Shown here: piece by piece, positions 18,160 to 39,590 of the stretch
Layout of the letters: each line of letters begins with the position of its first letter
Numbering within the stretch: position 1 is the first letter of the stretch
Origin: Caulobacter sp.
GTDB lineage: Bacteria > Pseudomonadota > Alphaproteobacteria > Caulobacterales > Caulobacteraceae
Direction: 5' to 3'
DNA: 64,000 nucleotides
NCBI GenBank assembly: GCA_031415995.1
Contig: JANOSS010000105.1
Location: 14,089 to 78,088 of the forward strand
Made by a program: the position numbers and the translations under genes
The notes under the pieces: model-generated
The model's database searches: none
What the model was told of the DNA's origin: nothing
What the model saw: the letters and a program-made list of their open reading frames with translations, nothing else

Positions 18160-18264
18160 CCGCGAGAGAAAGCCGTGACAGGGACTTGCGTTCCCGCGAC
18201 GACACCGCTAGGTATCGCGCCCTCGACCTCAGGCCCTTTAAAAAGGGGCTCACGAACGGCGCCT

Positions 18265-18354
<90 letters not shown>

Positions 18355-18580
18355 CTACCCTGTGAATTTCCGGAACTTTTCGCCACCGCCGCCCACCAAA
18401 ACACACTATCTCGATTGGCGATTGCGATTGCGTACGCAGGCTGTTGGCGGGCGCCTGGGGGCCCTGCGGGATTTCCTGGGCGCCATGCCGCGCGGTAGGG
18501 ATCCGGGCGTCAATGCTTGCGGATTGGTTGGTTCCAGCCCCCGTCGGGGACCGGAACCTTGGGAAGCCCCGCAACAGGGA

Positions 18581-18592
18581 TGGTCTATACCA
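18581..18592. promoter_or_regulatory. PhnR/PhnF-type operator, site 1
   Basis: TGGTCTATACCA, identical to site 4; lies downstream of the phnR stop. Confidence 0.7.
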
Positions 18593-18658
18593 AAATAGGG
18601 ACATTTCGACGCCTGCGCAGCGCGCTCAAGGAAAGCGCCCGTACGTGTCCGGCGAAGG

Positions 18659-19378
18659 TCAACGCACGCGGATATCGACGCTGATCTTGAGGGCGTCATG
18701 TCGCCAGTGCTCGCGGTCGAACTCGACCACGCGCCCCTGTGCATTGTAGCAGGTGCGCTCCACGCTGAGCCCAGGCAGGCCCGACTTGACCCGCAGGGCT
18801 TCGGCTTCACCCAGCGTCAGGGCGCAGGGCCGCATGTCGACCTTGTTGCGCGCGACGCCGATGCCGTAGACCGATTTCAGAACGCTGGTCAGCGAGCCGT
18901 CGAGATCGTGCTCCATAAGACCTGGCGCCAGGGAGGCGTCGACGACGATGCTCTCGATCAGCACGGCCCGGTCATCGATCGAGCGCCGGCGGCGGATCCA
19001 GTACATCGGCGCGCCAACGGGGCGTGAAAAGATCTGCGCCAGCATGCCGTCGCAGGCGATCTCGACCTTGCTGAGCGTCTCGGTCGCCGGCCGCCGCCCT
19101 TGCGCCTCGACATAGGACATGAAGCCCTCCCAGCGGGTCGGGTCATAGACCACCGGCGGCGGGGAAACGTACCAGCCGCTGCGGTCCTTTCGATAGATCA
19201 GCCCCTCGGCCTCAAGCTGAAACAGGGCCTCGCGAACGGTGCCCCGCGCCACGCCGCCGCCGACCTGCAACTGGCGCTCTGACGGCAGCCGTTCGCCAGC
19301 CTTCAGTTCGCCACTGACGATCCGCACGGCGATACCGTCGCGGACTCCAAGATAATGGAGAGTGTCGGACTGATGCAT
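18659..19378 (-). CDS. phnR: GntR/HutC family regulator with UTRA domain, PhnR-like
   Basis: LPSERQL, GLIYRKDRSGWYV, YDPT, DLDGSLT and WRHDALKISVD match Salmonella PhnR as recalled. Confidence 0.85.
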   Translation of the reverse strand: MHQSDTLHYLGVRDGIAVRIVSGELKAGERLPSERQLQVGGGVARGTVREALFQLEAEGLIYRKDRSGWYVSPPPVVYDPTRWEGFMSYVEAQGRRPATETLSKVEIACDGMLAQIFSRPVGAPMYWIRRRRSIDDRAVLIESIVVDASLAPGLMEHDLDGSLTSVLKSVYGIGVARNKVDMRPCALTLGEAEALRVKSGLPGLSVERTCYNAQGRVVEFDREHWRHDALKISVDIRVR

Positions 19379-19503: not shown

Positions 19504-19537
19504 TTGCCAAGCATAAGCCGATTTTGGTATATACCAA
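19504..19537 (+). promoter_or_regulatory. Sigma70-type promoter with operator site 2 over the -10
   Basis: TTGCCA (19504-19509), 16-bp spacer, GGTATATA inside the perfect palindrome TTGGTATATACCAA (19524-19537). Confidence 0.8.
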
Positions 19538-19560
19538 TCTAGCAACCAGGAGGCGGATCC

Positions 19561-19716
19561 ATGACCACCCACCTTCGCACACGCGGCGACGACCACGGGC
19601 ACAATCCAACCCCGAGCTCAGCGGGCGGCCCGCTGCCGGCCCAGCGCCTGGTCGCCCCTCTGGAAACGGAGCGGAAAAGCCGCACCGACCCCAGCATCGG
19701 ACGGCGGCTGCTGTAA
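19561..19716 (+). CDS. 51-aa small ORF (leader peptide or scar of a deleted gene)
   Basis: AGGAGG RBS 7 nt before ATG, first ORF after the operator; MTTHLRTRGDDHGHNPTPSSAGGPLPAQRLVAPLETERKSRTDPSIGRRLL. Confidence 0.45.
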   Translation: MTTHLRTRGDDHGHNPTPSSAGGPLPAQRLVAPLETERKSRTDPSIGRRLL

Positions 19717-19757
19717 GCGCGCTCGCCCAATTCCGACCCTGTCAGCACCACGGATAC

Positions 19758-20342
19758 ATGATGACGACACGTCCTGCGGCCGATGCTTTCGTGGCCGAAC
19801 TCGCCGATCTCTTCGCCCGACTGGGCGGCCTGCGCTACGGGGAAGACGTCAGCCAGCTGGAGCACGCGCTGCAGACGGCGCATCATGCCAAGGTCGACAA
19901 CGCGCCGCCCGCCATGATCGTCGCCGCCCTGCTGCATGACGTAGGCCACCTGATGCAGAGGGCCGGCGAACACGCCGCCGACCTTGGCATCGATACGCGC
20001 CACGAGCACATCAGCGCCGGCTATCTGGCGCGGGCGTTCGGCCCGGCGGTGACAGAGCCGATCCGCCTTCACGTGGCGGCCAAGCGCTACAGGGTGGCCG
20101 TGGACCCCGCCTATTTCGCCCGCCTCAGCAAGGCGTCCCTGCAGAGTCTGGCTCTGCAGGGCGGCCCGATGCGTGAGGCCGAGATCGAGGCGTTCCTGGC
20201 CGAGCCGGCGGCGCAAGCCGCCCTGCGACTGCGCGGCTACGACGAAGCGGGCAAGGCCCAGGACGCCGAGGTGGCCGGTTTCGAGGCCTATCACGACCAT
20301 CTTCGAGATCAGATCGATCGCGCGGACGAAGTTTCAGTCTGA
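19758..20342 (+). CDS. phnZ: PhnZ/TmpB-like HD-domain diiron oxygenase (oxidative C-P cleavage)
   Basis: RYGE, QLEHALQ, ALLHDVGH, RHE, LHVAAKRY, SLALQGGPM and LRGYDEAGK; all PhnZ-type ligands present. Confidence 0.85.
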   Translation: MMTTRPAADAFVAELADLFARLGGLRYGEDVSQLEHALQTAHHAKVDNAPPAMIVAALLHDVGHLMQRAGEHAADLGIDTRHEHISAGYLARAFGPAVTEPIRLHVAAKRYRVAVDPAYFARLSKASLQSLALQGGPMREAEIEAFLAEPAAQAALRLRGYDEAGKAQDAEVAGFEAYHDHLRDQIDRADEVSV

Positions 20343-20412: not shown

Positions 20413-20530
20413 CTTGAGCGTTTTCCGATAAGTGTGAAACGGTTATCGGTTCGAAAAACGCTCTAAACTTCTGATTTGGAGCCCTTTTCGCCCGGCCCTG
20501 ATGAAGCCATCAGGTCGGAAAGGGCTCTAG
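20413..20530 (+). repeat. CIR/Bru-RS-like intergenic repeat, copy 1
   Basis: Two tandem hairpins bounded by (T)AGAGC..GCTCTA; near-identical to 45550-45668 and, reversed, 49100-49217. Confidence 0.9.
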
Positions 20531-21471
20531 ACCTCGTCTGAGACCAGATGCTGCAAGACGCGTTTCTCGAGCACCAGCAGCGCGCTGGCGTTGTTGGTGC
20601 GCATGACCAGACCTGCGGCGAGCGGCCTGACGGCCTCGTGTACGGCGCGAGCCAGGCGCAGGAAGTCTGATCGCCCCCGTCCTGCGGCGCCATGCAAGGC
20701 GCAGAGCTGGCGCCAGTCGGATACAAAGTCCTCCAGCAGCATGCTGAACCGCGCAGCCCGGACCCTGGCTTCGGCGGTATCGGCAGCGAGCGCCAGTTCC
20801 GCGCGCAGATCGTCGACCAGCAGTTGCACTTCAGCGGCAGGCATCACCGGCGTGCGCTGGTCACCCTCGGTAAGCAAACTGGGACGCATCCCGGGATCCC
20901 AGGCCACCGTCCGCCATTGGGCGCGCGGCGGCGGCTGTCCACGGACGAATTGCCAGAAGGCCGCTGTGCCGCTGGTGTCCGCGACGAGATGGATGCGCTC
21001 GGCGCTGGCCCTGTTTTCCACATGGTGCGGGCGCCAGTTATCGAAGATCCAGGCTTCGCCAGCGGCCATGTGCACCGATTGCCCGTCGCAGTGAAAGGCG
21101 ACCTCCGGCCAGGTGAAGACCGGAATGTGCAGCCGCACCCGCGTATGCCAGTGGTAGTTGATATCGGCGTGCTCGGGCACGCTCGCGCCTGGGGCCAGGC
21201 GCATCAGCCGTGAGCGGCTCCAGACCACGCCAAAGGCCGCCAGGGCCTGGGTTGTATAGGGCATGGCCTCGAGCCAGCGCGTTGGCAGCATCTGCCCATG
21301 GACCGAGTCCGTCTCAGCCCCGCCCGCGCTGATCAACCGCGCCGCACTGTTGCCGGGCAAGCGGTCCGGGTGTGACGTCCAGGCTTCGTCTGGCAAGGCC
21401 GCGACCTCAGCCTGCAAACGCCCGACGTCGAAGAGCAGGGGGAGGTGGAAGAAGGGGCGTGAAAGCCGCAT
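20527..21471 (-). CDS. Aspartyl/asparaginyl beta-hydroxylase family Fe(II)/2OG oxygenase with C-terminal helical extension
   Basis: RSRLMRLAPG, PEHAD, RLHIPV, GEAWIFDNWRPHHVEN, RIHLVAD (HxD..H triad). Confidence 0.85.
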   Translation of the reverse strand: MRLSRPFFHLPLLFDVGRLQAEVAALPDEAWTSHPDRLPGNSAARLISAGGAETDSVHGQMLPTRWLEAMPYTTQALAAFGVVWSRSRLMRLAPGASVPEHADINYHWHTRVRLHIPVFTWPEVAFHCDGQSVHMAAGEAWIFDNWRPHHVENRASAERIHLVADTSGTAAFWQFVRGQPPPRAQWRTVAWDPGMRPSLLTEGDQRTPVMPAAEVQLLVDDLRAELALAADTAEARVRAARFSMLLEDFVSDWRQLCALHGAAGRGRSDFLRLARAVHEAVRPLAAGLVMRTNNASALLVLEKRVLQHLVSDEV

Positions 21472-21474
21472 GGG

Positions 21475-23406
21475 TCAGGCCTTGTAGCTGGCGAGCGCGT
21501 CACCCAGCCCGTCCCGCAGAGGCGCTAGCCATTGCTCGTAAGGCCGCCACTGCCCGAGGCCATCACGGCCGATGGGCTGGCGCACCTGCTCTGAACTGGG
21601 CGTGCGCACGCTGCGCTGGGTCTCGTGGAAAGCCAGGCAGGCCGGCTCAAAGGGCAGCCTGCAACCCTCCAGCATACGCTGTACGCTGTCTTCAAGGTCC
21701 TCGACCACATCCTCGTACGCCACCTTCAGCACCCGCCCCGGCAGCACCTCGCCCCAGTGCCTCATGAGGTCGAGATAGGAGCGATAGTGACGGGCGAGAT
21801 GATCCATGCCGTAGGTGAATTCCTGGTTGGTGGTCCCAAACAGCTGCTTGAGGTTGCTGAAGCAGCACGCCATGGGCTCGCGACGCACATCGATGATTGT
21901 CGACCGCGGCAGGATGAGATGGATCAGGCCGATGTGCCAGAAATTGTTGGGCATCTTGTCGATGAAGACGGCCTTCCCCAGCCTGCGATAGGTGCGGGTT
22001 TCGGCCAGAAAGCGCGCGCCGAGCGCCCGGGCGTCCTGCGCGGTAAGGCGCAGCAGGGCCTCGGGATCCAGCGGCAAGCCGCAATCAGGATCGCGGCCGC
22101 AGAGCTCGCCTGCATACCGGTCGATTTCTGTCAGCTCCTGCGTGCCTTCAACCTGGGAATGGGAGGCCAGGATCTGCTCGATCAAGGTTGACCCCGAACG
22201 CGGCAACCCCACGATAAAGATGGGTGCCGGATCGGCCAGACCCCAGTCAGCGCGCGCGGCAAAGACTTCGGCGGTGAAGACCTGTTTCAGTCGCAGGACG
22301 CAGGATTCCGCGACCTCGGGGCGATATCGGCTGGAGACAGCGCGGATCGCATTGCCGCGATCGTAATATTGCCAGGATGATGCGTAGTCTGCCCGGTCCT
22401 CCAGCGCCTTGCCCAACGCAAAACAGAGATAGACGCGGTCCATGTCCTGGACGGTCGGCTGGGCTTGCGCAGCGCGCAGGCGCGCGATGTCATCGTCGGT
22501 GAAGCGGTAGGTCTTGAGGTTGGCCAGGCTAAACCAGGCCACGCCGTAGTCTGGCCTCGCCGCCAGGGCGGCGCGATAGTCCGCAATGGCGTCCTGTTGC
22601 CGGCCCGTGACCTTCAGGGCGTTCGCCCGCCAAAGACGCAGGTCAGCGACTTCCGCCCCCAGGAGGGCTGGGCTGGCCAGCAGCCGTCCATAGAGATCAA
22701 TCAGCGGCTCATGGTCGCCCAGAGCGATGCAGGCCGCGCCGTACTGCTTGAGATACTGGCGATTGTCGGGGTCGTGTCCGAGCAAGTGCTCGGCCTCCTG
22801 CCGCGCCTGCAGGGGCTTTTGCTGCTGCAAGAGCACCATGGCGTAGTCGAGGCGCGCAGCGTGATAGTCCGGGGCGCGATCAAGCACAGACTTCAGCAAC
22901 GCCTCGGCCTCGCCAGGCGCCCCGCTCGCCATGCAGATACGCGCCAGCAGGCGAAGGGCGCCGACGTTTCCGCCATCCGTGTACAGATAATCACGGATGA
23001 CCTCCTCGGCCGAGGACAGATCGCCGTCGGCAAGCAGGCTGCTGGCCGCCACCACCGCCGGCGGGAGCTGCCTCAGCATCGCCAGATGCTGTTCGGCCGT
23101 GGCCGCCTGGGCCGTATCGCCGACCATGCGGTAGAGCTGTTCCAGCATGTCCCAGCTCGCCGGCAGGGTCGGGTTGAGGCGCACGGCCTCCCGCAGCGCC
23201 TCGATGGCGGCCGGCGCATCGCCAAGCACCACATGGCAGTGGCCGCGCTCCTGATACAGGCGGCTGAACCCGGGATCCAGTTCCTGGAGCCGCGCGAGGC
23301 TGGCCAGGGCTTCCGCGATGCGTTGGCCCGACCGCAGTTCCCTGGCTTCCTGCAACAGCGCGTCGCGATCGCGAGACGGGGGGCTGGAACTCTCGGAGGG
23401 CGTCAC
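21475..23406 (-). CDS. TPR-repeat sulfotransferase
   Basis: Several TPRs; PIFIVGLPRSGSTLIEQIL PAPS-binding loop; IDKMPNNF; VRTPSSEQVRQPI. Confidence 0.9.
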   Translation of the reverse strand: MTPSESSSPPSRDRDALLQEARELRSGQRIAEALASLARLQELDPGFSRLYQERGHCHVVLGDAPAAIEALREAVRLNPTLPASWDMLEQLYRMVGDTAQAATAEQHLAMLRQLPPAVVAASSLLADGDLSSAEEVIRDYLYTDGGNVGALRLLARICMASGAPGEAEALLKSVLDRAPDYHAARLDYAMVLLQQQKPLQARQEAEHLLGHDPDNRQYLKQYGAACIALGDHEPLIDLYGRLLASPALLGAEVADLRLWRANALKVTGRQQDAIADYRAALAARPDYGVAWFSLANLKTYRFTDDDIARLRAAQAQPTVQDMDRVYLCFALGKALEDRADYASSWQYYDRGNAIRAVSSRYRPEVAESCVLRLKQVFTAEVFAARADWGLADPAPIFIVGLPRSGSTLIEQILASHSQVEGTQELTEIDRYAGELCGRDPDCGLPLDPEALLRLTAQDARALGARFLAETRTYRRLGKAVFIDKMPNNFWHIGLIHLILPRSTIIDVRREPMACCFSNLKQLFGTTNQEFTYGMDHLARHYRSYLDLMRHWGEVLPGRVLKVAYEDVVEDLEDSVQRMLEGCRLPFEPACLAFHETQRSVRTPSSEQVRQPIGRDGLGQWRPYEQWLAPLRDGLGDALASYKA

Positions 23407-24032
23407 CGCGCGGCGCCGGCCAGCAGAAACGGCTCCAGCCAGCTGGGTTCCGGCTGGTCGGCGTCATAGTACTCGAAGATCAGATGGACGCGGTCGGTAT
23501 CACCGTCGTTGCGCACCCAGTGTGGACCCAGGTTGTTGACCTCCACCGCCTCGCCCGGTGGGAAATGGTGTTCACCGCCGCCGAAGAAGGACACCACCTG
23601 GGGATTGGTCGACAACGGCACATGGATCTTGTGCGGCCATTTCGCGGCGGGGTTGGCGTCGATATGAGGGTGGATCACCCCGCCCGGCGGCATCCTTGCC
23701 AACATCACTCGAGGAAACACTCCGCGCGCATAGCCATAGTCGCGGACGGCCTGAGCCAGCACCGGCTCCAGCAATCCGCGCCAGTCGGGCCAGGCCGCGC
23801 GATCGTGCGAACTGCGCCAGTCGCGAGGACCGTCGATAAACCGGAAAACGATGTGGCGGGTCGCGTCCAGCACCTCAAACCTGTTGGGCTTGCCCGCGTT
23901 TTCCGCAGCCCAGACGTCCGCGGCAATCTCCAGAACGGCCGCCTGCAGCGCGGCGATGTCGACCGGCCCGAGCTTGCGGACGCCGGTGGTCTTGCGCGGG
24001 TTGGCGGCAGGCGCAAAAGGGGTAGCGTTCAT
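23403..24032 (-). CDS. Aspartyl/asparaginyl beta-hydroxylase family Fe(II)/2OG oxygenase
   Basis: RVMLARMPPGG, HPHID, KIHVPL, NNLGPHWVRN, DRVHLIFE. Confidence 0.85.
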   Translation of the reverse strand: MNATPFAPAANPRKTTGVRKLGPVDIAALQAAVLEIAADVWAAENAGKPNRFEVLDATRHIVFRFIDGPRDWRSSHDRAAWPDWRGLLEPVLAQAVRDYGYARGVFPRVMLARMPPGGVIHPHIDANPAAKWPHKIHVPLSTNPQVVSFFGGGEHHFPPGEAVEVNNLGPHWVRNDGDTDRVHLIFEYYDADQPEPSWLEPFLLAGAAR

Positions 24033-24667
24033 CGCATATCTTCGAAGCTGTAGCCGAACTGTTCCAGATCCTGGGCGTAGCGGGCGGCGACGCCGTCGAT
24101 CAGGTCCTGGTCGTAATAGTGACGATAGTCACCGTGATGGCTGCCGTTGACGCGGTCCAGAGGGCGGGAGGGAATGCCGATGCGCGCGCAGATCGCATCA
24201 TACGACCCCTGCATATCCTCGACGTGGCCGATGTGGTCGGCCATCAGGGTCTTGCCGTCCTCGCCCACCAGAAGCGAGGCTTGTGGCTGGAACAGGATGT
24301 GGTGTTCCGGCGGCTTCTCGAAAAGAAAGTGCCGCATGACCGCCTGCGGTTGCTGCTCAAAGACGTCACCGCCCCGCAGCATGAAGGCGCAGTACGAGAC
24401 GAAGCGATCGAACGGATTGCGCACGAAGGCGAACTTGAAATAACCGCTGAAGGCCGCCTCGCCGAGATAGGGGCGCACCTGCTGCAGAGACAGGTGGCCA
24501 TGCCGGATCGCCGCCAGATCCTCCCAAGGGAAGCGCTTGTCGACGAACAGCCCGACCTGCTCGAGGTCGCCGTCGCTCAGGTGTTCGCGCAGGGCCTGTC
24601 GCACGGCATGGGTCCCGGTCTTGGGCACGGCGGCGAAGATGAAGCGATGGCTGTGGGAAACAATCAT
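24029..24667 (-). CDS. Sulfotransferase family 2 protein
   Basis: FIFAAVPKTGT 5'-PSB loop and FAFVRNPFDRFVSY 3'-PB motif. Confidence 0.85.
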   Translation of the reverse strand: MIVSHSHRFIFAAVPKTGTHAVRQALREHLSDGDLEQVGLFVDKRFPWEDLAAIRHGHLSLQQVRPYLGEAAFSGYFKFAFVRNPFDRFVSYCAFMLRGGDVFEQQPQAVMRHFLFEKPPEHHILFQPQASLLVGEDGKTLMADHIGHVEDMQGSYDAICARIGIPSRPLDRVNGSHHGDYRHYYDQDLIDGVAARYAQDLEQFGYSFEDMR

Positions 24668-24741: not shown

Positions 24742-27528
24742 TTAGAACTTGTAGCTAAGCCCAACCATATAGGTCGAGCCGCTCTGGTTCTGGTTGTAGA
24801 GGTACTGGTTCTGGCCCCAGAACTGCGTGTCCTCCTGGTTCGTCAGATTGATACCGTTCAGCGTGAGCTGCAGTTGATCGGTGACGTTCAGGAAGGCCGA
24901 GGCGTCCACATAGGTCGACCCCTCGAAGCCGCGCGTGCTGGCGCTCATGACAGTGGCGCTGTTCCCGGAGAACCAGCGATTGCGGTGGCTCATGGAACCA
25001 CGGACACCCCAGCGCGCGGTCTCGTAGTAGAGCGTGGCGTTGTAGCTGGTGTTCGAGATGCCGGTGAGCGCCTCGTCAGCGTCCACATAGGTGTAGTTGG
25101 CCACCGCACCCAGCTTGTCGAACGGCGCCGGCAGGAACGAGAATTGGCCCTGTGCGGCCAGTTCCACACCGGTCAGCTTCTTGGTGCCGGCGATATTGAC
25201 CGGCATCGAGAACTCTTTGACGATCGTATTGGCCGTGGCGCCCGGGATCGTGGTGAACGGGACGCCCGTCTGGCTGAAGGGGATGTTCTCGAGGGTCTGT
25301 GAGCCGATAAAGTTCTTGATGCTCTTCTGGAACACGCTGGCCGAGAGCAGGCCGTCCACGCCGAAATAGTACTCCGCCGCGAAGTCCAGCGTGTTGTCCT
25401 TGTAGGGCTCAAGGTTTGGATTGCCGCGCGACGCCGAGATGTCGCCGCTATCCGAATTCTGGAACGCACTGCCCTTGGCCGCCATCGAACCCAGGCCCGG
25501 ACGGTTGAGGTTCTGCGTGGCGGAGAAGCGCACCAGCACGTCCGGAGCCACCTCCAGCACCGAGTTCATGGCCGGCAGCACGCCTGAGTAGCTGCCTTCG
25601 ACGTCCGTCGTGCCCAGATAGGCGTAGCTGTCGCCCTGGATCCAGCCGGTGCTGTGGGTGTCAGTCTGATAGCCCCGCAGGCCGATGTTACCGCGGAAGC
25701 GCTTGCCGAAGAGGTCGGTGTCCCAGTCCGCCTGCACATACTCGGAGAAGGTCTTTTCCGAGGTCTCGTAGACGTTCTCGATGTCCTGCAGCGCGCCGCC
25801 CGTACCGTCCTTGTTGGGACCGAAGCGGTGGTACTCGTTGTACTTCGCAAAGGCCTTGGCGTAGTCGCCGACCAGCCACGACCCGAAGCTGTTGGTGAAC
25901 ACCGAGGTGACGTCGGCAACGGCCGTCCCGCGCATCTTGGTCCGGGTTCCATTGACGTTGTCGTCATAGAACAGGTCGATGCCGCCTTGCGTGAACTTGT
26001 GATAGGCCACGCCGGCCCGCAGGGTCCAAACCTCGTTCAGCACGTATTGGGCGTCCAGCACGCCTTCCTGCAGTTCCGACTGATTGTTGAAGCCGCGATA
26101 GTAGAACGAGTCCATCGCGTAGTTGGCGGGGTTGGTTCTATCCCAGCCCGGATACTGGAACGTCGCCGACCGGCCATCGCTGCCATAGTTGGCGATCAGA
26201 TTGCCCTTGGCGCGCATATAGAGCTTGTCGTCATAGGGCGTCTCGTAGGTCGACTTCTCGTAGCCGACATGTCCGTCGATCGTGAGGCGATCCGAGAGGT
26301 CCCACTTGCCGGTCAGCGCCACCTGGTCGAAGTTGTTTTCGTTCAGCGAGCGGCGGTGCTCGCTGCCGAAGGTGGTGCCCGTGACATCGGTCATGGTCAC
26401 GTAGTTGCTGTTGTCCCAGGCCAGGTTGTTGATGACGGACGCCTTCTGGAAGGCGATAGGCCAGACCGTGCTGGCCGCAGTATCGAACGCAACCGAGCCC
26501 TTGGACGCGAGCGGCCGCGTGGCGAGATGCAGTTCGTCGCGATGCGTGGTGTACTCGCCGTGCAGCACATCAAGCGTCAGCAGCAGGTTGTCCACCGGAC
26601 GCCACTGCACAGCTCCCGTCAGACCGAGGCGCTCCTGCTGCGAGTTCCAGGATGAGATGCGGTTGCCATCCGCAAAGTACAGGTCGCCGGACTGGAACTT
26701 GGTCTGCTGCGCAGCGCTTAGCTTGGAGATGTCCAGACCCTTGGCGACCAGGCCCTTCATGGCCGCCGCATCCGGTTTCGTGTAGTTATAGGTATTGTGG
26801 CCCTGTTCCGTGGTCTCACGCTTTGAATAGGCGACCGAGAACGCCACGCCAAACTTGTTGTCCCAGTTCTGGCTGAACAAGGCCGCGATGCGCGGCTGCG
26901 CGTCCTCGGTGTATTCGTTGGTTCCGAGCTTAAACGACACCGCACCCTTGGAGCCCGACGCGTAGTCAAACGGCTTGCCGGTGAACAGGCCGACCGTGCC
27001 GGCCATGCCGCCCTCGTTTTGGGCCGCCTGGAAGGTCTTTTCGACCTCCACGCGGGAGAACAGTTCCGAGGCGAAAATGTTGAAGTCGAAAGCGCGATCG
27101 CGTGAACGCTGGCCGCGGCTGTCCTGGGCGGAATCGACGTTGCCCAGCACCTCCATGCCATTGAGCTGCACACGGGCGAAATCTGGACCCAGGCCCCGCA
27201 GCGAGATCCGCCGGCCTTCGCCCGCTTCCCGGGTGATCTGCACGCCCGGCAGGCGTTGCAGCGATTCAGCCAGGTTGAGTTCCGGGAACTTCGCCATGTC
27301 CTCGGCGACGATCACGTCCTTCTGGATGACCGAATCTCTCTTGATGGCGCGCGCATCGCTGAGCGACTTCCGGTAGCCGGTGACGACAACTTCGTCGACC
27401 AGATCGCCAGAAGCCTGCTGCGCGAGCGCGGCCGATGAATGCGCGCCAGCGACCAGCACCGCTACGGTAGCTAGCAAAAAGCTCTTGAGATGCGGGCGGG
27501 TAGCCCGAACAGGATATCGCTTAAACAT
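24742..27528 (-). CDS. TonB-dependent receptor of the island
   Basis: Signal peptide, DEVVVTG TonB box, NLAESLQRLPGV plug, C-terminal YKF; AAGGA RBS before ATG 27528. Confidence 0.95.
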   Translation of the reverse strand: MFKRYPVRATRPHLKSFLLATVAVLVAGAHSSAALAQQASGDLVDEVVVTGYRKSLSDARAIKRDSVIQKDVIVAEDMAKFPELNLAESLQRLPGVQITREAGEGRRISLRGLGPDFARVQLNGMEVLGNVDSAQDSRGQRSRDRAFDFNIFASELFSRVEVEKTFQAAQNEGGMAGTVGLFTGKPFDYASGSKGAVSFKLGTNEYTEDAQPRIAALFSQNWDNKFGVAFSVAYSKRETTEQGHNTYNYTKPDAAAMKGLVAKGLDISKLSAAQQTKFQSGDLYFADGNRISSWNSQQERLGLTGAVQWRPVDNLLLTLDVLHGEYTTHRDELHLATRPLASKGSVAFDTAASTVWPIAFQKASVINNLAWDNSNYVTMTDVTGTTFGSEHRRSLNENNFDQVALTGKWDLSDRLTIDGHVGYEKSTYETPYDDKLYMRAKGNLIANYGSDGRSATFQYPGWDRTNPANYAMDSFYYRGFNNQSELQEGVLDAQYVLNEVWTLRAGVAYHKFTQGGIDLFYDDNVNGTRTKMRGTAVADVTSVFTNSFGSWLVGDYAKAFAKYNEYHRFGPNKDGTGGALQDIENVYETSEKTFSEYVQADWDTDLFGKRFRGNIGLRGYQTDTHSTGWIQGDSYAYLGTTDVEGSYSGVLPAMNSVLEVAPDVLVRFSATQNLNRPGLGSMAAKGSAFQNSDSGDISASRGNPNLEPYKDNTLDFAAEYYFGVDGLLSASVFQKSIKNFIGSQTLENIPFSQTGVPFTTIPGATANTIVKEFSMPVNIAGTKKLTGVELAAQGQFSFLPAPFDKLGAVANYTYVDADEALTGISNTSYNATLYYETARWGVRGSMSHRNRWFSGNSATVMSASTRGFEGSTYVDASAFLNVTDQLQLTLNGINLTNQEDTQFWGQNQYLYNQNQSGSTYMVGLSYKF

Positions 27529-27547
27529 GAGTGTCCTTCGCCCCAAC

Positions 27548-27559
27548 TGGTATGAACCA
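27548..27559. promoter_or_regulatory. PhnR-type operator, site 3 (variant)
   Basis: ACTGGT-ATGA-ACCAGT about 20 bp upstream of the TBDR start; same TGGT-N4-ACCA spacing. Confidence 0.55.
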
Positions 27560-27775
27560 GTCAGACTAAAGCAGCCAGCGACGACACCCGCGTGACAGCG
27601 CCGTCCCGCACGACGCAATTTGTCCGCTCCGCGCCGCACGTCAGGTCGATTGTGGCCCTGCGGGGGTGACTTTAGGGAATATTGGGCGCTCTATCGGCCC
27701 TGTCGCCCGGCGCATTGACGCTCCTCAACACCCTGACGTCGCGGCTCATTTGGCCAACGGGTCACAGTCGCAAAA

Positions 27776-27809
27776 CTGCCAACTTCTCGTGATATTTGGT
27801 CTATACCAA
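27776..27809 (+). promoter_or_regulatory. Promoter with operator site 4 over the -10
   Basis: CTGCCA, 16-bp spacer, GGTCTATA inside TTGGTCTATACCAA (27796-27809); same geometry as 19504-19537. Confidence 0.8.
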
Positions 27810-27834: not shown

Positions 27835-28014
27835 ATGAGTCCAGCGGACAAGCCGGCCCTGAAGGCCTTGCCTCAGACGCGCGGACCATCTCGGCCGCCG
27901 GCGGCGACGCGCAGCAGCGCCGCCGCCGGCGCGGTGATCGACGCCGCCGCCAGACATCCCTTCGCGCTGGCTGCACTTCCCATTCACAGCCCTGATTCAT
28001 GGAGTACGTTATGA
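27835..28014 (+). CDS. 59-aa upstream ORF overlapping the phosphatase start
   Basis: ATG 25 nt after the operator; TGA overlaps ATG 28011; no clear RBS. Confidence 0.25.
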   Translation: MSPADKPALKALPQTRGPSRPPAATRSSAAAGAVIDAAARHPFALAALPIHSPDSWSTL

Positions 28015-29675
28015 AGAATCCGATCCGGGTGATCCCGCTTCTCCTTGCGCTCCTCGCCGGCATGGCAGGCGCGGCCGGCGCCTATGCCGGCGAGGCCCGG
28101 AAGGCAGGCCATGTGATCATCATCGGCGTGGACGCCCTGAGCCCCGACGGCGTGATGAAGGCCGATACCCCCACCCTGCACGACATGATGAAGCGCGGCA
28201 GCTGGAGCATGCATGCCCGCGGCGTGCTGCCCACCACGAGCGGCGCCAACTGGGCGTCCATCATCGGTGGCGCAGGACCAGAGCAGCACGGCGTGACGAG
28301 CAACGACTGGCAGGTGGGCGAGTTCAATTTCCCCGCTTCGGTGACCGGCTCCGGGGGCTTCTTCCCATCCATCTTCCAGGTGCTCACAGATCAGAAGCCG
28401 GAATGGGAACTAGGCTCGATCTATAACTGGGACGGCTTCGGCAATCTCTACGACCACCGGTTCGTGGACTATGACGTCCACGGCAAGGATGAGGACGAAA
28501 CCACCGCGCTGGCGGTCAATTACATCAAGACCAAGCGGCCTGAGTTCCTGTTTGTGCATTTGGATCATGTCGATCACGCCGGACATGCCCATGGCCACGG
28601 CACGCCGCTGTTTTACGAGGCCGTGGCCAAGGCCGACAAGCTGATCGACAAGATCCGCCAGGCCACGGTGGAGGCCGGCATCGCGGACGAGACGGTGATC
28701 CTGGTCACCTCCGACCATGGCGGCGTGGGCAAGGGGCACGGCGGAGAAAGCCTGGCTGAACTTGAAATTCCCTGGATTGCCTATGGCAAGGACATCAAGC
28801 CGGGCCAGCTTGATCTGCCCATCAACACGTTCGACACCCCCGCCACCGCCGCCTGGCTGCTGGGCGCCAAGATCCCCTACGCCTGGCTAGGGCGCGCCGT
28901 GACGCCAATCCTGAAGGGCGAAAAGGCGCCAGAACAAGCCTATCGCTCCAGCAGCTTTTACGCCTCTCCGGTGATCGAACCGGCAAGCGACGGGAATGCG
29001 CCTGCAGGCGGGCTGTTCATCAACCGGACGGCGAAGATGACCATCCGCAACCCCAACGCCGCCGGACAGGTCCGCTACACGCTGGACAGTTCAATCCCCA
29101 CGGTCGGATCCCCGCTTTACACCGGCCCTGTCGAGATCGCTCGCAACACGATCGTGCGGGCCACGCTGTTCGTTTCCGGCCAAGCCGCCAGCGTTCCCGC
29201 CACGGCCTACTTCCGCATCCTCGACCTGAAAGGTCCCGAGGCGCGCGGGGTGAACTACAAGGTGTATCTGCTGCCGGAGACGCCGGTGCGGCTGCCCGAT
29301 TTCTCCCGGCTCGAGCCCGCAACCGCCGGCACATCCCATGAACTGACCATCGACGGGATGACGCTCCCGCGAGGCGACAGCGTGGCGGTGGTCTTCGAAG
29401 GGTATCTCCACATCGCGGCGGCAGGCGCCTACAGTTTCGCGCTCGCCTCCGACGACGGCAGCAAGCTCTATATCGACGGCAAACAGATAGTCGACAACGA
29501 TGGCGACCACGGCGTGGTTACGGCGAACGGCAACATCGACCTGCAGCCCGGCAAGCATGCGATCAGGGTTGAGTGGTTCAATGGCGGCGGCGGTGCCTGG
29601 TTGGGCGCATACTTCGAAGGCCCAGGCATTCCTCGCCAGTTCATCGATCCAAACCTGCTGACGCCGCAGGAGTGA
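28011..29675 (+). CDS. Secreted alkaline-phosphatase superfamily (NPP/phosphodiesterase-like) enzyme with chitobiase-C/Fn3-like and PA14 domains
   Basis: Sec signal; IIGVDAL, PTTSGANW (Ser nucleophile), HLDHVDHAGH, VTSDHG; QVRYTLDSSIP; FALASDDGSKLYIDG and HAIRVEWFNGGGG. Confidence 0.85.
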   Translation: MKNPIRVIPLLLALLAGMAGAAGAYAGEARKAGHVIIIGVDALSPDGVMKADTPTLHDMMKRGSWSMHARGVLPTTSGANWASIIGGAGPEQHGVTSNDWQVGEFNFPASVTGSGGFFPSIFQVLTDQKPEWELGSIYNWDGFGNLYDHRFVDYDVHGKDEDETTALAVNYIKTKRPEFLFVHLDHVDHAGHAHGHGTPLFYEAVAKADKLIDKIRQATVEAGIADETVILVTSDHGGVGKGHGGESLAELEIPWIAYGKDIKPGQLDLPINTFDTPATAAWLLGAKIPYAWLGRAVTPILKGEKAPEQAYRSSSFYASPVIEPASDGNAPAGGLFINRTAKMTIRNPNAAGQVRYTLDSSIPTVGSPLYTGPVEIARNTIVRATLFVSGQAASVPATAYFRILDLKGPEARGVNYKVYLLPETPVRLPDFSRLEPATAGTSHELTIDGMTLPRGDSVAVVFEGYLHIAAAGAYSFALASDDGSKLYIDGKQIVDNDGDHGVVTANGNIDLQPGKHAIRVEWFNGGGGAWLGAYFEGPGIPRQFIDPNLLTPQE

Positions 29676-29861
29676 GGCGTTTGAGGCGGCCCGGTTCCCG
29701 TAGAACGGCATCTGAAGAATTCAGCGAGACCCAGAGATCGTCCGGGCCTTCGCTGATCCTTGCGATTTGCTTTGGAAGCGGAGACCTCTAGGACTCTCCG
29801 GGTTCGCAACCAGCGCGAATCCGGACGCCTGCGGCAGACACCGCCCAATGCAGAGGCTTGC

Positions 29862-31061
29862 GTGACCGACAAAATCAGCGCCGAGGACTGGCTGCAGCAG
29901 GCGGTCATCGCCAGCAACCAGGGTCTGCACCCCCAAGCGCGCGAGGCTTTCAGTCGCGCGCTGTCGATCGACCCGACGCTGGGCGAGGCGATGCTGGGCC
30001 TTGGCCTCTCGCATATGGCGACGCGGGACTTCAGTGACGCCGTCATGCCTCTTCGTCAGGCGGCCGCGACGCCCGACGCGCCGGCGATCTGGCACGCCTG
30101 CCTGGCCCAGGGCCTCTATATGACCGGTGATTTCGCCGGGTGCGCGGAAGCCTTTGAACGCGCCGCGGCCCTGGAACCTCTGGCGACCAACGCCCGCCTG
30201 ACCCATGCCCGGGCCCGCACCTTCGCCAGCATGATCCAGGGCTCTGTGGACGATGCCCTGGCCCGCTATCCAGCCCTGGCCGGCGATGAAGCCGAGGACA
30301 TCGAGGTCATCGCCCGGGAGGCCTTTGCGATCCTCGGCGTCTTTGGACATGCCCCCGCAGCGGCGGCGGTCGGCGCCTGGCGGCTGGCCCGAAGCCCGGA
30401 CGATCAGATCCAGGCCTATCTGCTGCAGGCGGTCAGCGGGGCGGCGGTCGATCGCGCGCCGGCCGCCTATGTCGAGGCGCATTTCGACCGCTTCGCCGAC
30501 AATTTCGACCACCAGCTGGTCGATCTGCTGAACTATCGCGCTCCAGAGCGGATGGCGCAGTTGATGGAAGGTCACGCCGGCCCGTTCGCCGAGATCCTCG
30601 ACCTGGGCTGCGGCACCGGACTTTCGGCCCCCGCCCTCGCGCGCTTTGGCGGTCGCCTGACCGGCGTCGATCTCTCCGGCGGCATGCTGGACAGGGCAAG
30701 GGCGCGCGGCGGTTATGACCTGCTGGTCCAGGCCGAGGCCGTCGCGTTCCTCGACCAGCATCCGGCCGCCTTCGACCTGGTCTTCGCAGCCGACATGGTG
30801 ATCTATTTCGGCGACCTGTCGGACCTGTTCCGGGCAGCCGCAAAGGCGCTGCGCCCGGGCGGCTTTTTCACCCTGAGCACGGAGGTGGGAGCGGAGGGCT
30901 GGACGTTGCTGAGCTCGGGACGCTTCTCTCACGCGGACGCCTACGTCGCCCAGGCGGCGGGCCCTGAGTTTGCGCTGCTGGACCAGGAACCCATCGCCCT
31001 GCGCCACGAGGGCACGGCGCCCGTCAGGGGAACGCTGCACGTGTTCCAGCGGACCGCCTGA
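29862..31061 (+). CDS. TPR-containing SAM-dependent methyltransferase
   Basis: N-terminal TPRs; YVEAHFDRFADNFD, ILDLGCGTG, GVDLSGGML, GRFSHAD; GTG start after AGAGG. Confidence 0.85.
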   Translation: MTDKISAEDWLQQAVIASNQGLHPQAREAFSRALSIDPTLGEAMLGLGLSHMATRDFSDAVMPLRQAAATPDAPAIWHACLAQGLYMTGDFAGCAEAFERAAALEPLATNARLTHARARTFASMIQGSVDDALARYPALAGDEAEDIEVIAREAFAILGVFGHAPAAAAVGAWRLARSPDDQIQAYLLQAVSGAAVDRAPAAYVEAHFDRFADNFDHQLVDLLNYRAPERMAQLMEGHAGPFAEILDLGCGTGLSAPALARFGGRLTGVDLSGGMLDRARARGGYDLLVQAEAVAFLDQHPAAFDLVFAADMVIYFGDLSDLFRAAAKALRPGGFFTLSTEVGAEGWTLLSSGRFSHADAYVAQAAGPEFALLDQEPIALRHEGTAPVRGTLHVFQRTA

Positions 31062-31066
31062 CCCTT

Positions 31067-32779
31067 ATGTCCGCCATCGCCCTGCCCCATCCACTCATCG
31101 CCCAGGCGCGCGACCTTCTCAATCGGGGCCAGGTCGAACCGGCCCTGGCGACCGCAAGGCGGCGGCTGGCAGAGGCCGCCGATGACATCGACGCCCTGGA
31201 GATCCTGGCCCTGGTCTGCCAGCAGCGTGGACAGGCGGTCGAGGCCGTCAGCCTTCTGGAGCGGATCATCGCCCTCTCGCCGACCCTGGACTGGCCGCGC
31301 GACGACCTGGCGATCCTGCTGGCGGGGTTGGGCCGCAAGGCCCAGGCCGAGGCCGTCGTCCGCGCCGGCCTGGCGCTGAACGCCAGCAACCCCCAGGCCC
31401 TCGCCATGCTGGGAACCCTGCTGACCGAGCGGCGCGACCTGCCCGGCGGCGAGGCGGCGTTCCGAAGCGCCCTGGCGCTGGTGCGCGACCATCCGCCTAC
31501 CCAGACAGCCCTGGCAGCCAATCTGATCGAGCAGGGCAAGCTTGAGGCGGCCGAACCCCTGCTGGCCCGCGCTGACCAGTTGGCACCGGGCGACGGCGCG
31601 ACCCTGGCCCACTGGTCGCGATTGCGCGAGGCCATGGGCGACCTGCCCGCCAGCCGCGCCCTGCTGGACCGCGCCGCGGCGGCGGGGTTCGACGTCACCC
31701 TGCGCCGCGCCGTGCAGTTGGGCCGCGAGCAGCGTCACGCCGAAGCCCTGGCCGTGATCGAGGCCGTCCCCGGTCGCTTAGGCGGCGACGCCCTGCTGGA
31801 AAGCGGTCGCCTGAAGGAAAGGCTGGGACGTCCTGTCGAGGCCTTCGCTGACTTTGTCGAGGGCAAGGCCAGGCTGGCTGCGCGTGACGGCCTGGCCTAT
31901 GACGGCGGCGGCGTGGCCCGCGAGTTCGACGCCCTGGCGCGGCTGGTCGAGACCTGCGCCCCCCTACCCGGCGCGGCGCCGCACGAGGGACCGCAGCCGG
32001 TGTTCGTGTTCGGGTTTCCGCGTTCGGGCACCACCCTGGTCGAGCAGATGCTGTCGAGCCATTCGGCGATCGCGGCCGGCGGCGAGCTGCCGTTCGTCGC
32101 CGAGATGGTCTCGGCGCTGGAGAGCCAGTTTGGCGGCCTTTCGGCGCTGTGGACGCCCGGCGTCGCCGAGGCCCTGCGTGACCTCTATCTCGACCGCGCC
32201 AAAGCGTTCGGGCTGATGGACACCGGCAGGCCCCTGTTCACCGACAAGATGCCGCTCAGCGAAGTCTGGACGCCGGTGATCCGCGCGGCCTTCCCGCAGG
32301 CCAAGCTCATCCGCATGATCCGCCACCCGCTGGATACGGCTGTGTCAATGCTGTCGCACAACCTGACCCATGGCGAGTTCTGCGGCTATCGGATCGAGGA
32401 CATCGCCACGCACATGCGGGCCGTCCATGCCTTGACGGGACGCTATGCCAAGGCGCTGGACGATACGGCGCTGGGGGTCCGCTACGAGGACCTGGTGGCC
32501 GATCCGGAGACCTGGACGCGGCGGCTCCTGGACCATCTCGACCTGCCGTTCGAGCCGGCTTGCCTTCGCTTCCACGAGAACCGCCGCTATGCGCCAACGC
32601 CGTCCTACGCTCAGGTCAGCGAGCCGCTGAACGACCGCTCGATCGGGCGGTGGCGGCAGTATCGCGAGCGGTTGGCACCGCAGGTGGCGGCGCTGGCGGC
32701 CATCACTATGAACCTCGGCTATCCTTCTCCCCTTGCGGGAGAAGGATCAGGCAGACAGCAGCCTGATCGTATCGGCTAG
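31067..32779 (+). CDS. TPR-repeat sulfotransferase
   Basis: TPRs; PVFVFGFPRSGTTLVEQML; FTDKMPL; APTPSYAQVSEPL. Confidence 0.9.
   Translation: MSAIALPHPLIAQARDLLNRGQVEPALATARRRLAEAADDIDALEILALVCQQRGQAVEAVSLLERIIALSPTLDWPRDDLAILLAGLGRKAQAEAVVRAGLALNASNPQALAMLGTLLTERRDLPGGEAAFRSALALVRDHPPTQTALAANLIEQGKLEAAEPLLARADQLAPGDGATLAHWSRLREAMGDLPASRALLDRAAAAGFDVTLRRAVQLGREQRHAEALAVIEAVPGRLGGDALLESGRLKERLGRPVEAFADFVEGKARLAARDGLAYDGGGVAREFDALARLVETCAPLPGAAPHEGPQPVFVFGFPRSGTTLVEQMLSSHSAIAAGGELPFVAEMVSALESQFGGLSALWTPGVAEALRDLYLDRAKAFGLMDTGRPLFTDKMPLSEVWTPVIRAAFPQAKLIRMIRHPLDTAVSMLSHNLTHGEFCGYRIEDIATHMRAVHALTGRYAKALDDTALGVRYEDLVADPETWTRRLLDHLDLPFEPACLRFHENRRYAPTPSYAQVSEPLNDRSIGRWRQYRERLAPQVAALAAITMNLGYPSPLAGEGSGRQQPDRIG
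32722..32746. repeat. REP-like hairpin or terminator remnant directly after the nagE stop
   Basis: tccttctccc-cttgc-gggagaagga; read as PSPLAGEG in the sulfotransferase frame. Confidence 0.65.
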
Positions 32780-34528
32780 CGCATCGGCCTGCGGCCCCAT
32801 CACCACATGGATCGTCCGCTCGCCGATCCGGGCCACGCCGCGTGCGCCCAGGGTCTTGAGAGCAGCCTCGTCTATGGCCAGGGGATCGAGCACCACCACA
32901 CGCAGGCGGCTGGTGCAGCTGCTCAGGCTCTCGATATTGCGCGACCCGCCGAGGGCCGCGACCAAACGTTCGGCTTGCGCCTTGTCGCCCGCAGCAGGGG
33001 GCGCGGCGACGACCGGCCTCGGCGCGGCGGCCTTGGCGACGGCGCCGCCCATGGCCGCGCGGATCTCGCTCGCCACCTGGTCGGCGATCGGACCCAGCAC
33101 CACCTGCAGAGCGCGCTCCGAGGGTCGCACGAGGCCGCGCGCGCCCAGGGCCTTGAGTCGCGGCTCATCAACCACGCCCTGCCCGGTCACCACCATCCGC
33201 AGGCGCGTCGTGCAGGCATCCACCGAGACGAGATTGGCCGCGCCGCCCAAGGCGATCAGGAAGTCCTCGCCGCGTCCGCCGGCCGAGGCCGCGACCGGCG
33301 CGGCAATGGCGTCGTCGGGCTCGCGGCCCGGGGTCTTCAGGTCGAAGCGGACAATCACCCAGCGGAAGACGCCGTAATAGAGCGCGCCATAGACCAGCCC
33401 CACCGGGATCAGCATCAGCGGCCGGGTGGCCTTGTTGAAGTTCAGCACATAGTCGAACAGGCCCGCCGAGAAGCCGAAGCCCAGCTTCACGTCCAGCAGG
33501 TTCATGATCACCATCGACAGGCCCGTCAGCACGGCATGGACCGCGTAGAGGACCGGGGCCAAGAACATGAAGGAGAACTCGATCGGCTCAGTCACCCCGG
33601 TCAGGAACGAGGTCAGGGCCAGGGAGCCGAGCATGCCGCCCACGGCCTTGCGGCGTTCGGGACGGGCGGTGTGCAGCATGGCCAGGCACGCAGCGGGCAG
33701 GCCAAACATCATCACCGGGAAGAAGCCGCTCATGAACGCCCCGGCGGTGGGGTCGCCGGCCGCAAAGCGGTTCAGGTCGCCGGTGGCGCCGTTGAAGTCG
33801 CCCAGAATGAACCAGACCACATTGTTGAGGATGTGGTGCAGGCCCGTGACGATCAGCAGGCGGTTGAGCAGGCCATAGACGAACAGCCCCACATCGCCCG
33901 AGGCGATGACCAGACCGCTGAGACCGTCGACGCCGGCCTCCAGAGAACTCCAGAAGAAGCCAAACAGCAGGGCCAGGAGGACGCCGGCCAGACCCGCAAC
34001 GATCGGTACGAAGCGGCGGCCGCCAAAGAAGGCCAGGTATTCGGGCAGCTTGATGTTGGAATAGCGGTTGTACAGCCAGCCGCTGATCACGCCGGAGAGA
34101 ATGCCGACCGGGATCGACAGCTTGCCGATCTCCTTGGCCTTCCAGGCGGCGATGGTGAGGTCCCTGGCGCTTTCGACGACCGTCGCGGTCACTTCCGGCG
34201 GCACGACCATCAGCGCATCGACGCCCTTGGTGGCGATGACGTAGCAGACCACGCCGGCCAGGCCCGCCGCGCCATGGTTCTCTCGCGCCAGGCCAACGGC
34301 GACGCCGATGGCGAAGATCAGGCCCAGGCTGGAAAAGATCGCCCCGCCCGCTGCGCCGAACACATTGGCGATGTGCAAGGAGATGCCGCCGGTCATGGCG
34401 GCCAGGCCAGGCGCGCCCAGTAGGTCGGGTTGACCGATGCGCAGGAGCAGCGCCGCCACCGGCAACACGGCGATGGGCAGCATCAGGGCGCGGCCCAGGG
34501 GCTGGAGAACTTCGAGCGGCGACTTCAT
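32747..34528 (-). CDS. nagE: PTS N-acetylglucosamine permease EIIC with two EIIB domains
   Basis: LGRALMLPIAVLP, TGLHHILN, LTGVTEPIEF; ACTTRLR and SCTSRLR. Confidence 0.95.
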   Translation of the reverse strand: MKSPLEVLQPLGRALMLPIAVLPVAALLLRIGQPDLLGAPGLAAMTGGISLHIANVFGAAGGAIFSSLGLIFAIGVAVGLARENHGAAGLAGVVCYVIATKGVDALMVVPPEVTATVVESARDLTIAAWKAKEIGKLSIPVGILSGVISGWLYNRYSNIKLPEYLAFFGGRRFVPIVAGLAGVLLALLFGFFWSSLEAGVDGLSGLVIASGDVGLFVYGLLNRLLIVTGLHHILNNVVWFILGDFNGATGDLNRFAAGDPTAGAFMSGFFPVMMFGLPAACLAMLHTARPERRKAVGGMLGSLALTSFLTGVTEPIEFSFMFLAPVLYAVHAVLTGLSMVIMNLLDVKLGFGFSAGLFDYVLNFNKATRPLMLIPVGLVYGALYYGVFRWVIVRFDLKTPGREPDDAIAAPVAASAGGRGEDFLIALGGAANLVSVDACTTRLRMVVTGQGVVDEPRLKALGARGLVRPSERALQVVLGPIADQVASEIRAAMGGAVAKAAAPRPVVAAPPAAGDKAQAERLVAALGGSRNIESLSSCTSRLRVVVLDPLAIDEAALKTLGARGVARIGERTIHVVMGPQADALADTIRLLSA

Positions 34529-34531
34529 CGC

Positions 34532-37063: not shown

Positions 37064-37083
37064 GGGGTTACTCTCTGGAAAAA

Positions 37084-39375: not shown

Positions 39376-39556
39376 GGACGGGCTCTCACGGACACGGTGG
39401 GCGCGGCAAAAAGTGGGCGGAGCGACGAAGCGCCCCGCCCCAGCTCCATGCTTGCAGGTCAGGAGGATCGATTTGGCGGCGATGCGAAGCGGACCGGTCA
39501 TCAGGTGATCCTGAACCATGCCGCCCCCGATGCAATCGTCGCCTGAAAGAAGAAGA

Positions 39557-39590
39557 TCGGGACTTCCGGAGAGGGGGCCGGAAGTCCCGA
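39557..39590 (-). terminator. Intrinsic terminator after the nag TBDR
   Basis: tcgggacttccgg / ccggaagtcccga stem followed on the minus strand by tcttcttcttt. Confidence 0.75.

Follow-up and report, generated by a model that had tools for sequence, protein, structure and literature searches.

A putative exported NPP-like phosphodiesterase of Caulobacter in a predicted aminophosphonate regulon, a candidate for releasing 2-aminoethylphosphonate from conjugates

We analysed a stretch of 64,000 nucleotides from Caulobacter sp. (assembly GCA_031415995.1, contig JANOSS010000105.1, positions 14,089 to 78,088 of the forward strand), hereafter called the window, with a GC content of about 65 %. The subject is one gene of this window, the target gene, which is predicted to encode an exported phosphodiesterase related to the NPPs and fused to CHB_HEX_C and PA14 modules. 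The gene and its parts are as follows, with the source of each assignment in brackets.

28011..29675, plus strand: target gene, predicted exported NPP-like phosphodiesterase with CHB_HEX_C and PA14 (ORF list, Pfam, homologue starts)
28011..28088, plus strand: Sec-type signal peptide, residues 5-30, probable cleavage after AYA (read from the translation)
28104..28928, plus strand: compact NPP-type catalytic core of the alkaline-phosphatase (AP) superfamily, about residues 36-310 (Pfam, profile alignments, AlphaFold model, fold search)
29001..29192, plus strand: CHB_HEX_C_1 / Fn3-associated beta-sandwich domain, residues 335-398 (Pfam)
29373..29606, plus strand: PA14 domain, residues 459-536 in Pfam, fold probably about 415-556 (Pfam, PDB entry 6QDI)

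The gene is a single open reading frame (ORF) that runs from 27999 or 28011 to 29675, and its product has 554 to 558 amino acids depending on the start. The methionine encoded at 28011 is the start in most of 31 aligned homologues and in the original prediction made for this DNA. An alternative ATG lies upstream at 27999, and all residue numbers given here refer to the 558-residue translation (P0001) that begins there. The GC content at third codon positions (GC3) is 0.81, which is gene-like and typical for genes of this genome. The best matches of the protein are found in Caulobacter sp. ErkDOM strains at 95-97 % identity. Promoter and terminator scans around the gene detected nothing.

Read by eye, the N terminus of the protein is MKNPIRVIPLLLALLAGMAGAAGAYA followed by GE, with a hydrophobic core and then an AYA/G site. 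It reads as a Sec signal peptide, and the hydrophobic segment is conserved across the alignment of close homologues. The protein is accordingly predicted to be extracytoplasmic, with both a periplasmic and a surface-bound location possible. The original prediction had called the enzyme secreted; the signal peptide bears out export to the extent of an extracytoplasmic location. The proposed architecture of an AP-superfamily catalytic domain, a chitobiase-C/Fn3-like domain and a PA14 domain was recovered in full, with all three domains above their Pfam gathering cut-offs. Phosphodiest (PF01663) covers residues 39-241 with 100.7 bits (cut-off 23), CHB_HEX_C_1 covers residues 335-398 with 45.3 bits (cut-off 22) alongside a Fn3_assoc match of 41.8 bits (cut-off 23), and PA14 (PF07691) covers residues 459-536 with 53.4 bits (cut-off 24). 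The C-terminal domain also matches the PA14 domain of PDB entry 6QDI (E 4.9e-11, phmmer against PDB sequences).

The key residues of the catalytic core are D45, S81 (the putative nucleophile), N84, D192, H196, D239, H240 and H247. In phmmer alignments with the PDB sequences of ENPP1 and Xanthomonas NPP, LPTTSGANW of the target aligns to PTKTFPNH of the NPPs, and VDHAGH and SDHG align to NPP metal-ligand motifs. A profile built from 112 sequences gives the same pairing against Xanthomonas NPP, with D45 aligned as well. Ser81, within PTTSGANW, thus pairs with the catalytic Thr of the NPPs in both kinds of alignment, which agrees with the serine nucleophile claimed earlier; serine replaces threonine as the hydroxyl nucleophile, and Asn84, three residues on, pairs with the NPP Asn. 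D45, D192, H196, D239 and H240 pair with NPP metal ligands. H247, which lies outside the NPP alignment, is probably the sixth ligand, judged from its invariance and position. All eight residues are invariant among 32 close homologues. In 112 diverse relatives of 31-71 % identity, D45, D192, H240 and H247 are invariant and S81, N84, H196 and D239 are conserved at 90 % or more.

The core is shorter than that of the NPPs: it lacks the insert of about 100 amino acids by which their final His is separated from the DHG motif. The PF01663 match spans only profile positions 1-220 of 342, and H247 follows H240 by only 7 residues, the DHG and GHG motifs likewise being 7 residues apart; the core is therefore a trimmed version of the NPP core that lacks the long insert after DHG. 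An AlphaFold model of the catalytic domain, made from the 112-sequence alignment (pLDDT 95, pTM 0.91), was used for the fold search. A full-length model from the 32 close homologues was left unused because of its low quality in the active-site region (pLDDT 69, with residues 71-122 below 50). The best PDB folds for the core are Xac NPP and ENPP1, 3, 5 and 7, with a TM score of about 0.75 on the query and only about 0.6 when normalised to the matched structures. Compared with the NPPs (Xanthomonas NPP, PDB 2GSN/7N1S, and ENPP1, 3, 5 and 7), the target has the same alpha/beta core, the same two-metal set of D, D/H and D/H ligands, the same Asn oxyanion contact and a nucleophile at the same position. 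It differs in its low sequence identity (15-16 %), in using Ser instead of Thr and in the missing insert, and it alone has the C-terminal CHB_HEX_C and PA14 domains and the phosphonate-regulon setting. From these alignments and the model we infer that the target belongs to the NPP branch of the AP superfamily and is a phosphodiesterase with two metals and a Ser nucleophile.

Other branches of the superfamily fit less well. The target scores far below the cut-offs of the curated models for PafA, PhnA, arylsulfatase and phosphopentomutase (PafA, NF042991: 26 bits against 650), and it reaches 13.5 bits against a cut-off of 24.4 for Alk_phosphatase (PF00245). We also rejected an arylsulfatase-type phosphonate monoester hydrolase (PMH). 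The Rhizobium/Burkholderia PMH (PDB 4UPK) and PehA share the AP superfamily with the target and have phosphonate monoesterase chemistry, but they are sulfatase-like proteins of about 500 amino acids with a single metal and a formylglycine nucleophile in a C/SxPxR motif. The target has no such motif, its nucleophile region being PTTSGANW, and it matches 4UPK only weakly and locally over residues 211-329, the C-terminal part of its core.

The gene belongs to a large family. More than 1,300 full-length homologues with the same three-domain architecture are present in a database clustered at 90 %, and every named one is an "alkaline phosphatase family protein" or carries a comparable label. The catalytic domain alone matches 344 clusters at 50 % identity (E up to 1e-30), and its relatives occur in two forms of about 300 and about 550 amino acids. 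All 112 of the catalytic-domain relatives match PF01663; the fused modules among them are CHB_HEX_C (53), PA14 (30), F5/8-type-C (4) and LamG (1). Neighbours in the ESM Atlas have generic names only.

The target gene shares a predicted operator with genes for phosphonate catabolism. The elements concerned are these.

27797..27808, no strand: operator-like palindrome TGGTCTATACCA, about 200 bp upstream of the target gene, in the divergent region shared with a TonB-dependent receptor gene
18581..18592, no strand: exact operator copy, downstream of the phnR-like gene and near tRNA-Ser
19525..19536, no strand: operator variant TGGTATATACCA, between the phnR-like and phnZ-like genes
18659..19378, minus strand: GntR/UTRA (HutC-type) regulator, PhnR-like, with operator sites on both sides (NCBIfam)
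19524..20342, plus strand: gene for a PhnZ-like HD-domain phosphonate oxygenase, divergent from the regulator gene (TIGR03276)

Only four copies of the exact 12-mer are present in the 3.84-Mb assembly: upstream of the target gene, by the phnR-like gene and twice on a second contig (C137). The two copies on C137 flank a gene for a DUF5690 membrane protein and a divergent operon encoding a TIGR03364 FAD oxidoreductase (402 bits, cut-off 285) and the phosphonoacetaldehyde hydrolase PhnX (322 bits, cut-off 220). Matches to the operator within 2 mismatches number 9 in the window, counted strand-wise, compared to 1.0 expected, and the variant TGGTATATACCA, which differs from TGGTCTATACCA by one mismatch, is conserved in a related genome (G095) that is syntenic with the window, operators included. 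PbfD-type enzymes oxidise 2-aminoethylphosphonate (AEP) and N-methyl-AEP to phosphonoacetaldehyde (PMC10574752), and we infer that the TIGR03364 family corresponds to these enzymes.

The regulator scores 236 bits against PhnR (TIGR03337), under the equivalog cut-off, and 80 bits against the next-best NCBIfam family. This PhnR-like GntR protein is most likely the repressor acting at TGGTCTATACCA, as far as its family and the flanking sites indicate. The PhnZ-like protein reaches 201 bits against TIGR03276 (E 1e-59), just under the cut-off of 214.6, and has weak HD and MIOX matches. Because the operator is common to the target gene, the phnR-like and phnZ-like genes and the oxidase-phnX operon, we place the target in an aminophosphonate regulon with a shared predicted operator, an assignment that is strongly supported. 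The phosphonate control proposed in the original prediction is upheld by this shared operator and by a gene neighbourhood kept in two phyla.

To describe that neighbourhood, we scanned species-representative genomes and obtained 80 loci with full-length homologues, 39 from Alphaproteobacteria (Caulobacteraceae, Sphingomonadaceae and Erythrobacteraceae) and 41 from Bacteroidota (Balneola, Chitinophagaceae, Dyadobacter, Flavobacteriaceae, Prolixibacteraceae and others). In Alphaproteobacteria, 31 of the 39 loci have a phosphonate gene (PhnX, oxidase, PhnZ-like, DUF5690 or PhnR-like) within 10 kb. An operator with at most one mismatch lies within 330 bp upstream of the gene in 18 loci and precedes an oxidase-PhnX-target operon in 3 more, giving a total of 21 out of 39. 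Four loci have the gene alone in unrelated DNA, with an exact operator about 70 bp upstream and neighbours that match none of the reference proteins by BLAST. The gene positions in these loci are:

L015: 9931
L017: 1868
L020: 9923
L047: 9927

Since the exact operator is kept upstream of the gene in four unrelated contexts, we conclude that it travels with the gene. The neighbours in L047, judged by eye, are response-regulator-like and sensor-kinase-like ORFs.

A PhnZ-like gene co-occurs with the target in 27 loci. The target gene itself is sparse, being present in only 4 of the 121 sampled genomes of the taxonomic family. PhnX is found above its cut-off in all four of these compared to 39 of the 121 overall, a tally in which the unpublished genome G025 counts as lacking PhnX above the cut-off. 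Gene order links the target further with its neighbours. In G075 a same-strand string consists of a TonB-dependent receptor, sulfotransferase, hydroxylase, tetratricopeptide-repeat (TPR) sulfotransferase, hydroxylase and target. In G104 a DUF5690 gene is divergent from oxidase and PhnX, which are followed by TonB-dependent receptor, sulfotransferase, hydroxylase, TPR-sulfotransferase and hydroxylase and then at once by the target in convergent orientation.

In Bacteroidota, phosphonate-catabolic genes (PbfA, PhnX-like, TIGR03364 or DUF5690) lie within 10 kb in 19 of the 41 loci. The assignments correspond to 701 bits for PbfA (NF049939, cut-off 525), 403 bits for the TIGR03364 oxidase and 196 bits for the PhnX-like HAD protein (TIGR03351), the last being below its cut-off of 219. 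SusC and SusD genes directly precede the homologue in 13-16 loci, often together with a pair of genes for an ECF sigma factor and FecR. A typical string reads PhnX-like, oxidase, SusC, SusD, target, PbfA, DUF5690. Another reads ECF sigma, FecR, SusC, SusD, target. Both kinds of string are PUL-like (L049-L091, for example L081, L087, L090, L074 and L089), and together they look like a "phosphonate utilisation locus". Most of the Bacteroidota homologues have a lipoprotein-type signal ending in a lipobox Cys. The association of the homologues with phosphonate genes thus holds across two phyla and several families.

The remaining features around the target gene in the window are listed below.

24742..27639, minus strand: TonB-dependent receptor of the TIGR01782 subfamily, divergent from the target gene and first gene of its operon
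20527-24667, minus strand: two sulfotransferases (PF03567; TPR plus PF13469) and two Asp/Asn-beta-hydroxylase-like cupins (PF05118), behind the TonB receptor gene
32747-45504: nag cluster with phosphotransferase-system EIICB, EIIA-HPr-EI, GH20, TonB-dependent receptor, a second GntR/UTRA regulator, NagB-II and NagA

The module of TonB-dependent receptor, sulfotransferases and hydroxylases co-occurs with the target in 28 of the 39 alphaproteobacterial loci, and the sulfotransferase/hydroxylase cassette was not found beside the homologues of the 41 Bacteroidota loci. Literature searches for a system combining these three components, and for a phosphonate-linked PA14 phosphatase, returned nothing relevant.

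The original prediction had further suggested that the nag cluster could use a GlcNAc backbone stripped by the enzyme. We rejected this functional link. The cluster adjoins the target in one of the 80 homologue loci, that of the closest strain only. It has its own GntR/UTRA regulator (NagQ-like, 42508-43272, plus strand), which heads nagB-II and nagA and shares only 27-32 % identity with PhnR-like proteins. Neither the nag genes nor the surroundings of this regulator contain a TGGTCTATACCA-type site within 2 mismatches.

Several other observations concern the surroundings. Downstream of the target gene, 29760-32779 on the plus strand encodes a TPR-methyltransferase and a third TPR-sulfotransferase, found in the nearest strains only (2 of 80 loci), and no terminator was detected between the target and these genes. 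A tRNA-Ser (CGA) at 18265-18354 on the plus strand adjoins the phnR-like gene and an operator copy, and the stretch from here to the nag genes is occupied by an accessory island, which runs from the phnR-like gene to the TPR-sulfotransferase ending at 32779. The tRNA lies inside the ORF 17972-18604 on the minus strand, and a second minus-strand ORF, 19539-20300, overlaps the plus-strand PhnZ-like gene; neither has a Pfam or NCBIfam match. Upstream of the island, 10289-14784 is a second phosphorus/iron-related cluster with a PhoD-like phosphatase (328 bits), an EncFtn-like ferritin ORF (12070-12381, 128 bits) and another TonB-dependent receptor. A Pho-box-like sequence CTGTCACGCGGGTGTCGT with 3 mismatches lies at 27581-27598 on the minus strand, near the start of the TonB receptor gene. 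On contig C137, a 533-residue protein with an adenosine-deaminase-family domain is encoded directly downstream of PhnX in its operon (L001:12179-13780, plus strand, genome G000), and no homologue of it was seen in the 80 loci.

AEP is the most abundant natural phosphonate. To our knowledge, free AEP is the entry point for every described catabolic pathway (PhnWX, PhnWAY, PhnY*/PhnZ and the Pbf enzymes) and for the known transporters. In nature AEP occurs chiefly as conjugates with glycans, lipids and proteins (PMC9381506). The closest described systems are the AEP clusters (phnWX, pbfD-phnX, pbfA, phnY*/phnZ) with PhnR-type regulators, and the target has its operator and its neighbourhood in common with genes of this kind: PhnX, the TIGR03364 oxidase, PbfA, PhnZ-like and PhnR-like genes. 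The papers on these clusters (PMC8154272, PMC10590968, PMC12366243) and a 2023 review (PMC10574752) mention no component of the phosphodiesterase/alkaline-phosphatase family, TonB receptor or sulfotransferase, and no AEP-liberating enzyme is named in the phosphonate-cluster papers searched. A reaction of the type that we propose for the target, in which a sugar loses a small charged head group held as a phospho(no)-ester, is carried out by GlcNAc-PDase of the EEP superfamily (PMC10704324) and by pneumococcal Pce of the MBL fold. Their folds are unrelated to the AP superfamily, and these enzymes act on phosphocholine or phosphoethanolamine, with AEP not mentioned in PMC10704324. Within the literature searched, the predicted role of the target is undescribed.

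On balance we favour the view that the target is an extracytoplasmic phosphonate-ester hydrolase that cleaves AEP-type head groups off conjugates, either imported ones or ones at the surface. The phosphonate-decorated material would be bound through the CHB_HEX_C and PA14 modules. In this material, AEP, N-methyl-AEP or 1-hydroxy-AEP would form esters with lipid backbones or with the sugars of glycans or glycoproteins. The co-regulated TonB-dependent receptor, or SusC/SusD in Bacteroidota, would bring the conjugates in. Ser81 would attack the phosphorus at the two-metal site with departure of the sugar or lipid alcohol, and the Ser81-phosphonyl-enzyme would then be hydrolysed to release the free aminophosphonate. 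The DUF5690 membrane protein would carry this product into the cytoplasm, where the C-P bond would be broken by the TIGR03364 FAD oxidase and PhnX or by the PhnZ-like oxygenase (PbfA in Bacteroidota). The involvement of TonB or SusC suggests that oligomeric substrates are imported and de-esterified. The gene context favours aminophosphonate head groups over phosphocholine, and we lean towards glycan carriers from the carbohydrate-binding-type modules and the coupling with SusC/SusD. NPPs are known to hydrolyse phosphonate monoesters promiscuously.

Several points weigh against this interpretation. The genomes are related, and the locus counts are therefore not independent samples or events. 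No phosphonate gene lies within 10 kb in 8 of the 39 alphaproteobacterial and 22 of the 41 Bacteroidota loci. The regulator remains below the PhnR equivalog cut-off (236 against 296.75 bits), and database searches found no characterised relative of the target, the names being generic throughout. Free AEP is small enough to need no TonB receptor, and the proposed mechanism assigns no role to the sulfotransferases and hydroxylases beside the alphaproteobacterial gene.

A further objection is the main competing explanation, in which the target is a general phosphate-scavenging phosphodiesterase or alkaline phosphatase for nucleic acids, phospholipid head groups or organic phosphate esters that merely shares a phosphorus-acquisition island and a regulator with phosphonate genes. 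The NPP-like core is compatible with this, as NPPs are broad diesterases, and so are the PhoD gene and additional TonB receptor 16 kb away and the Pho-box-like sequence at 27581-27598. That sequence has 3 mismatches, however, and the Pho-box scan found 2 sites compared to 3.3 expected, which is not above chance. The conserved cis-element is instead a GntR-type palindrome that is common to phnX and phnZ and follows the gene into unrelated contexts, and in Bacteroidota the gene lies inside operons of PbfA, PhnX-like and oxidase genes. The missing NPP insert after the DHG motif and the low scores against monoesterase models such as PafA also argue against general scavenging, which we regard as unlikely. 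Alternatively, the substrate may be a non-phosphonate one provided by the sulfotransferase and hydroxylase neighbours, such as a glycoconjugate or peptide that carries sulfate or phosphate groups, with the phosphonate link being regulatory only. The frequent co-occurrence of the cassette in Alphaproteobacteria (28 of 39 loci), its continuity with the target in G075 and weak Sulfatase-family Pfam matches of the target speak for such a substrate. Yet the gene is still found within phosphonate operons in Bacteroidota, where the cassette was not found, and its putative nucleophile is a Ser in an NPP motif and not part of a sulfatase formylglycine motif, so that we consider this explanation very improbable.

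It is also conceivable that the enzyme is of the phosphonolipase-C type, similar to ENPP7 or sphingomyelinase, and takes AEP off ceramide-AEP or phosphonolipids, the beta-sandwich domains serving only as surface anchors. This is a variant of the phosphonate-ester hydrolase that we favour, the one difference being what the head group is attached to; all of the regulon and neighbourhood evidence applies to it equally. ENPP6 and ENPP7 cleave head groups from lipids, and ENPP7, the alkaline sphingomyelinase, ranks among the top matches of the target in both the fold search and the profile comparison. The coupling with SusC/SusD and TonB receptors and the fusions with CHB_HEX_C, PA14, F5/8-C and LamG are more typical of glycan-processing loci, and no lipid-binding feature was identified in the target. 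A lipid-specific enzyme therefore appears quite unlikely to us.

Returning to the phosphonate-ester hydrolase, the target is a good candidate for the enzyme that frees AEP from glycans or lipids. It is a concrete and clonable one because its product is predicted to be exported and NPP-like, because the gene carries the operator of the regulon and because it lies beside outer-membrane importers in phosphonate operons of two phyla. We hypothesize, giving this broader proposal about an even chance, that the recycling of aminophosphonates in the environment begins with this family, as a dedicated phosphonate-ester hydrolase that has so far been missing from the known pathways. Phosphonoglycans, glycoproteins or phosphonolipids would be freed of their AEP, N-methyl-AEP or hydroxy-AEP, and a TonB-dependent receptor or SusC/SusD would be the partner of the enzyme in a "phosphonate utilisation locus" of Alphaproteobacteria and Bacteroidota. 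If this is the case, an extracellular step would be added to the phosphorus redox cycle, and the enzyme may provide an analytical tool for AEP-modified glycans.

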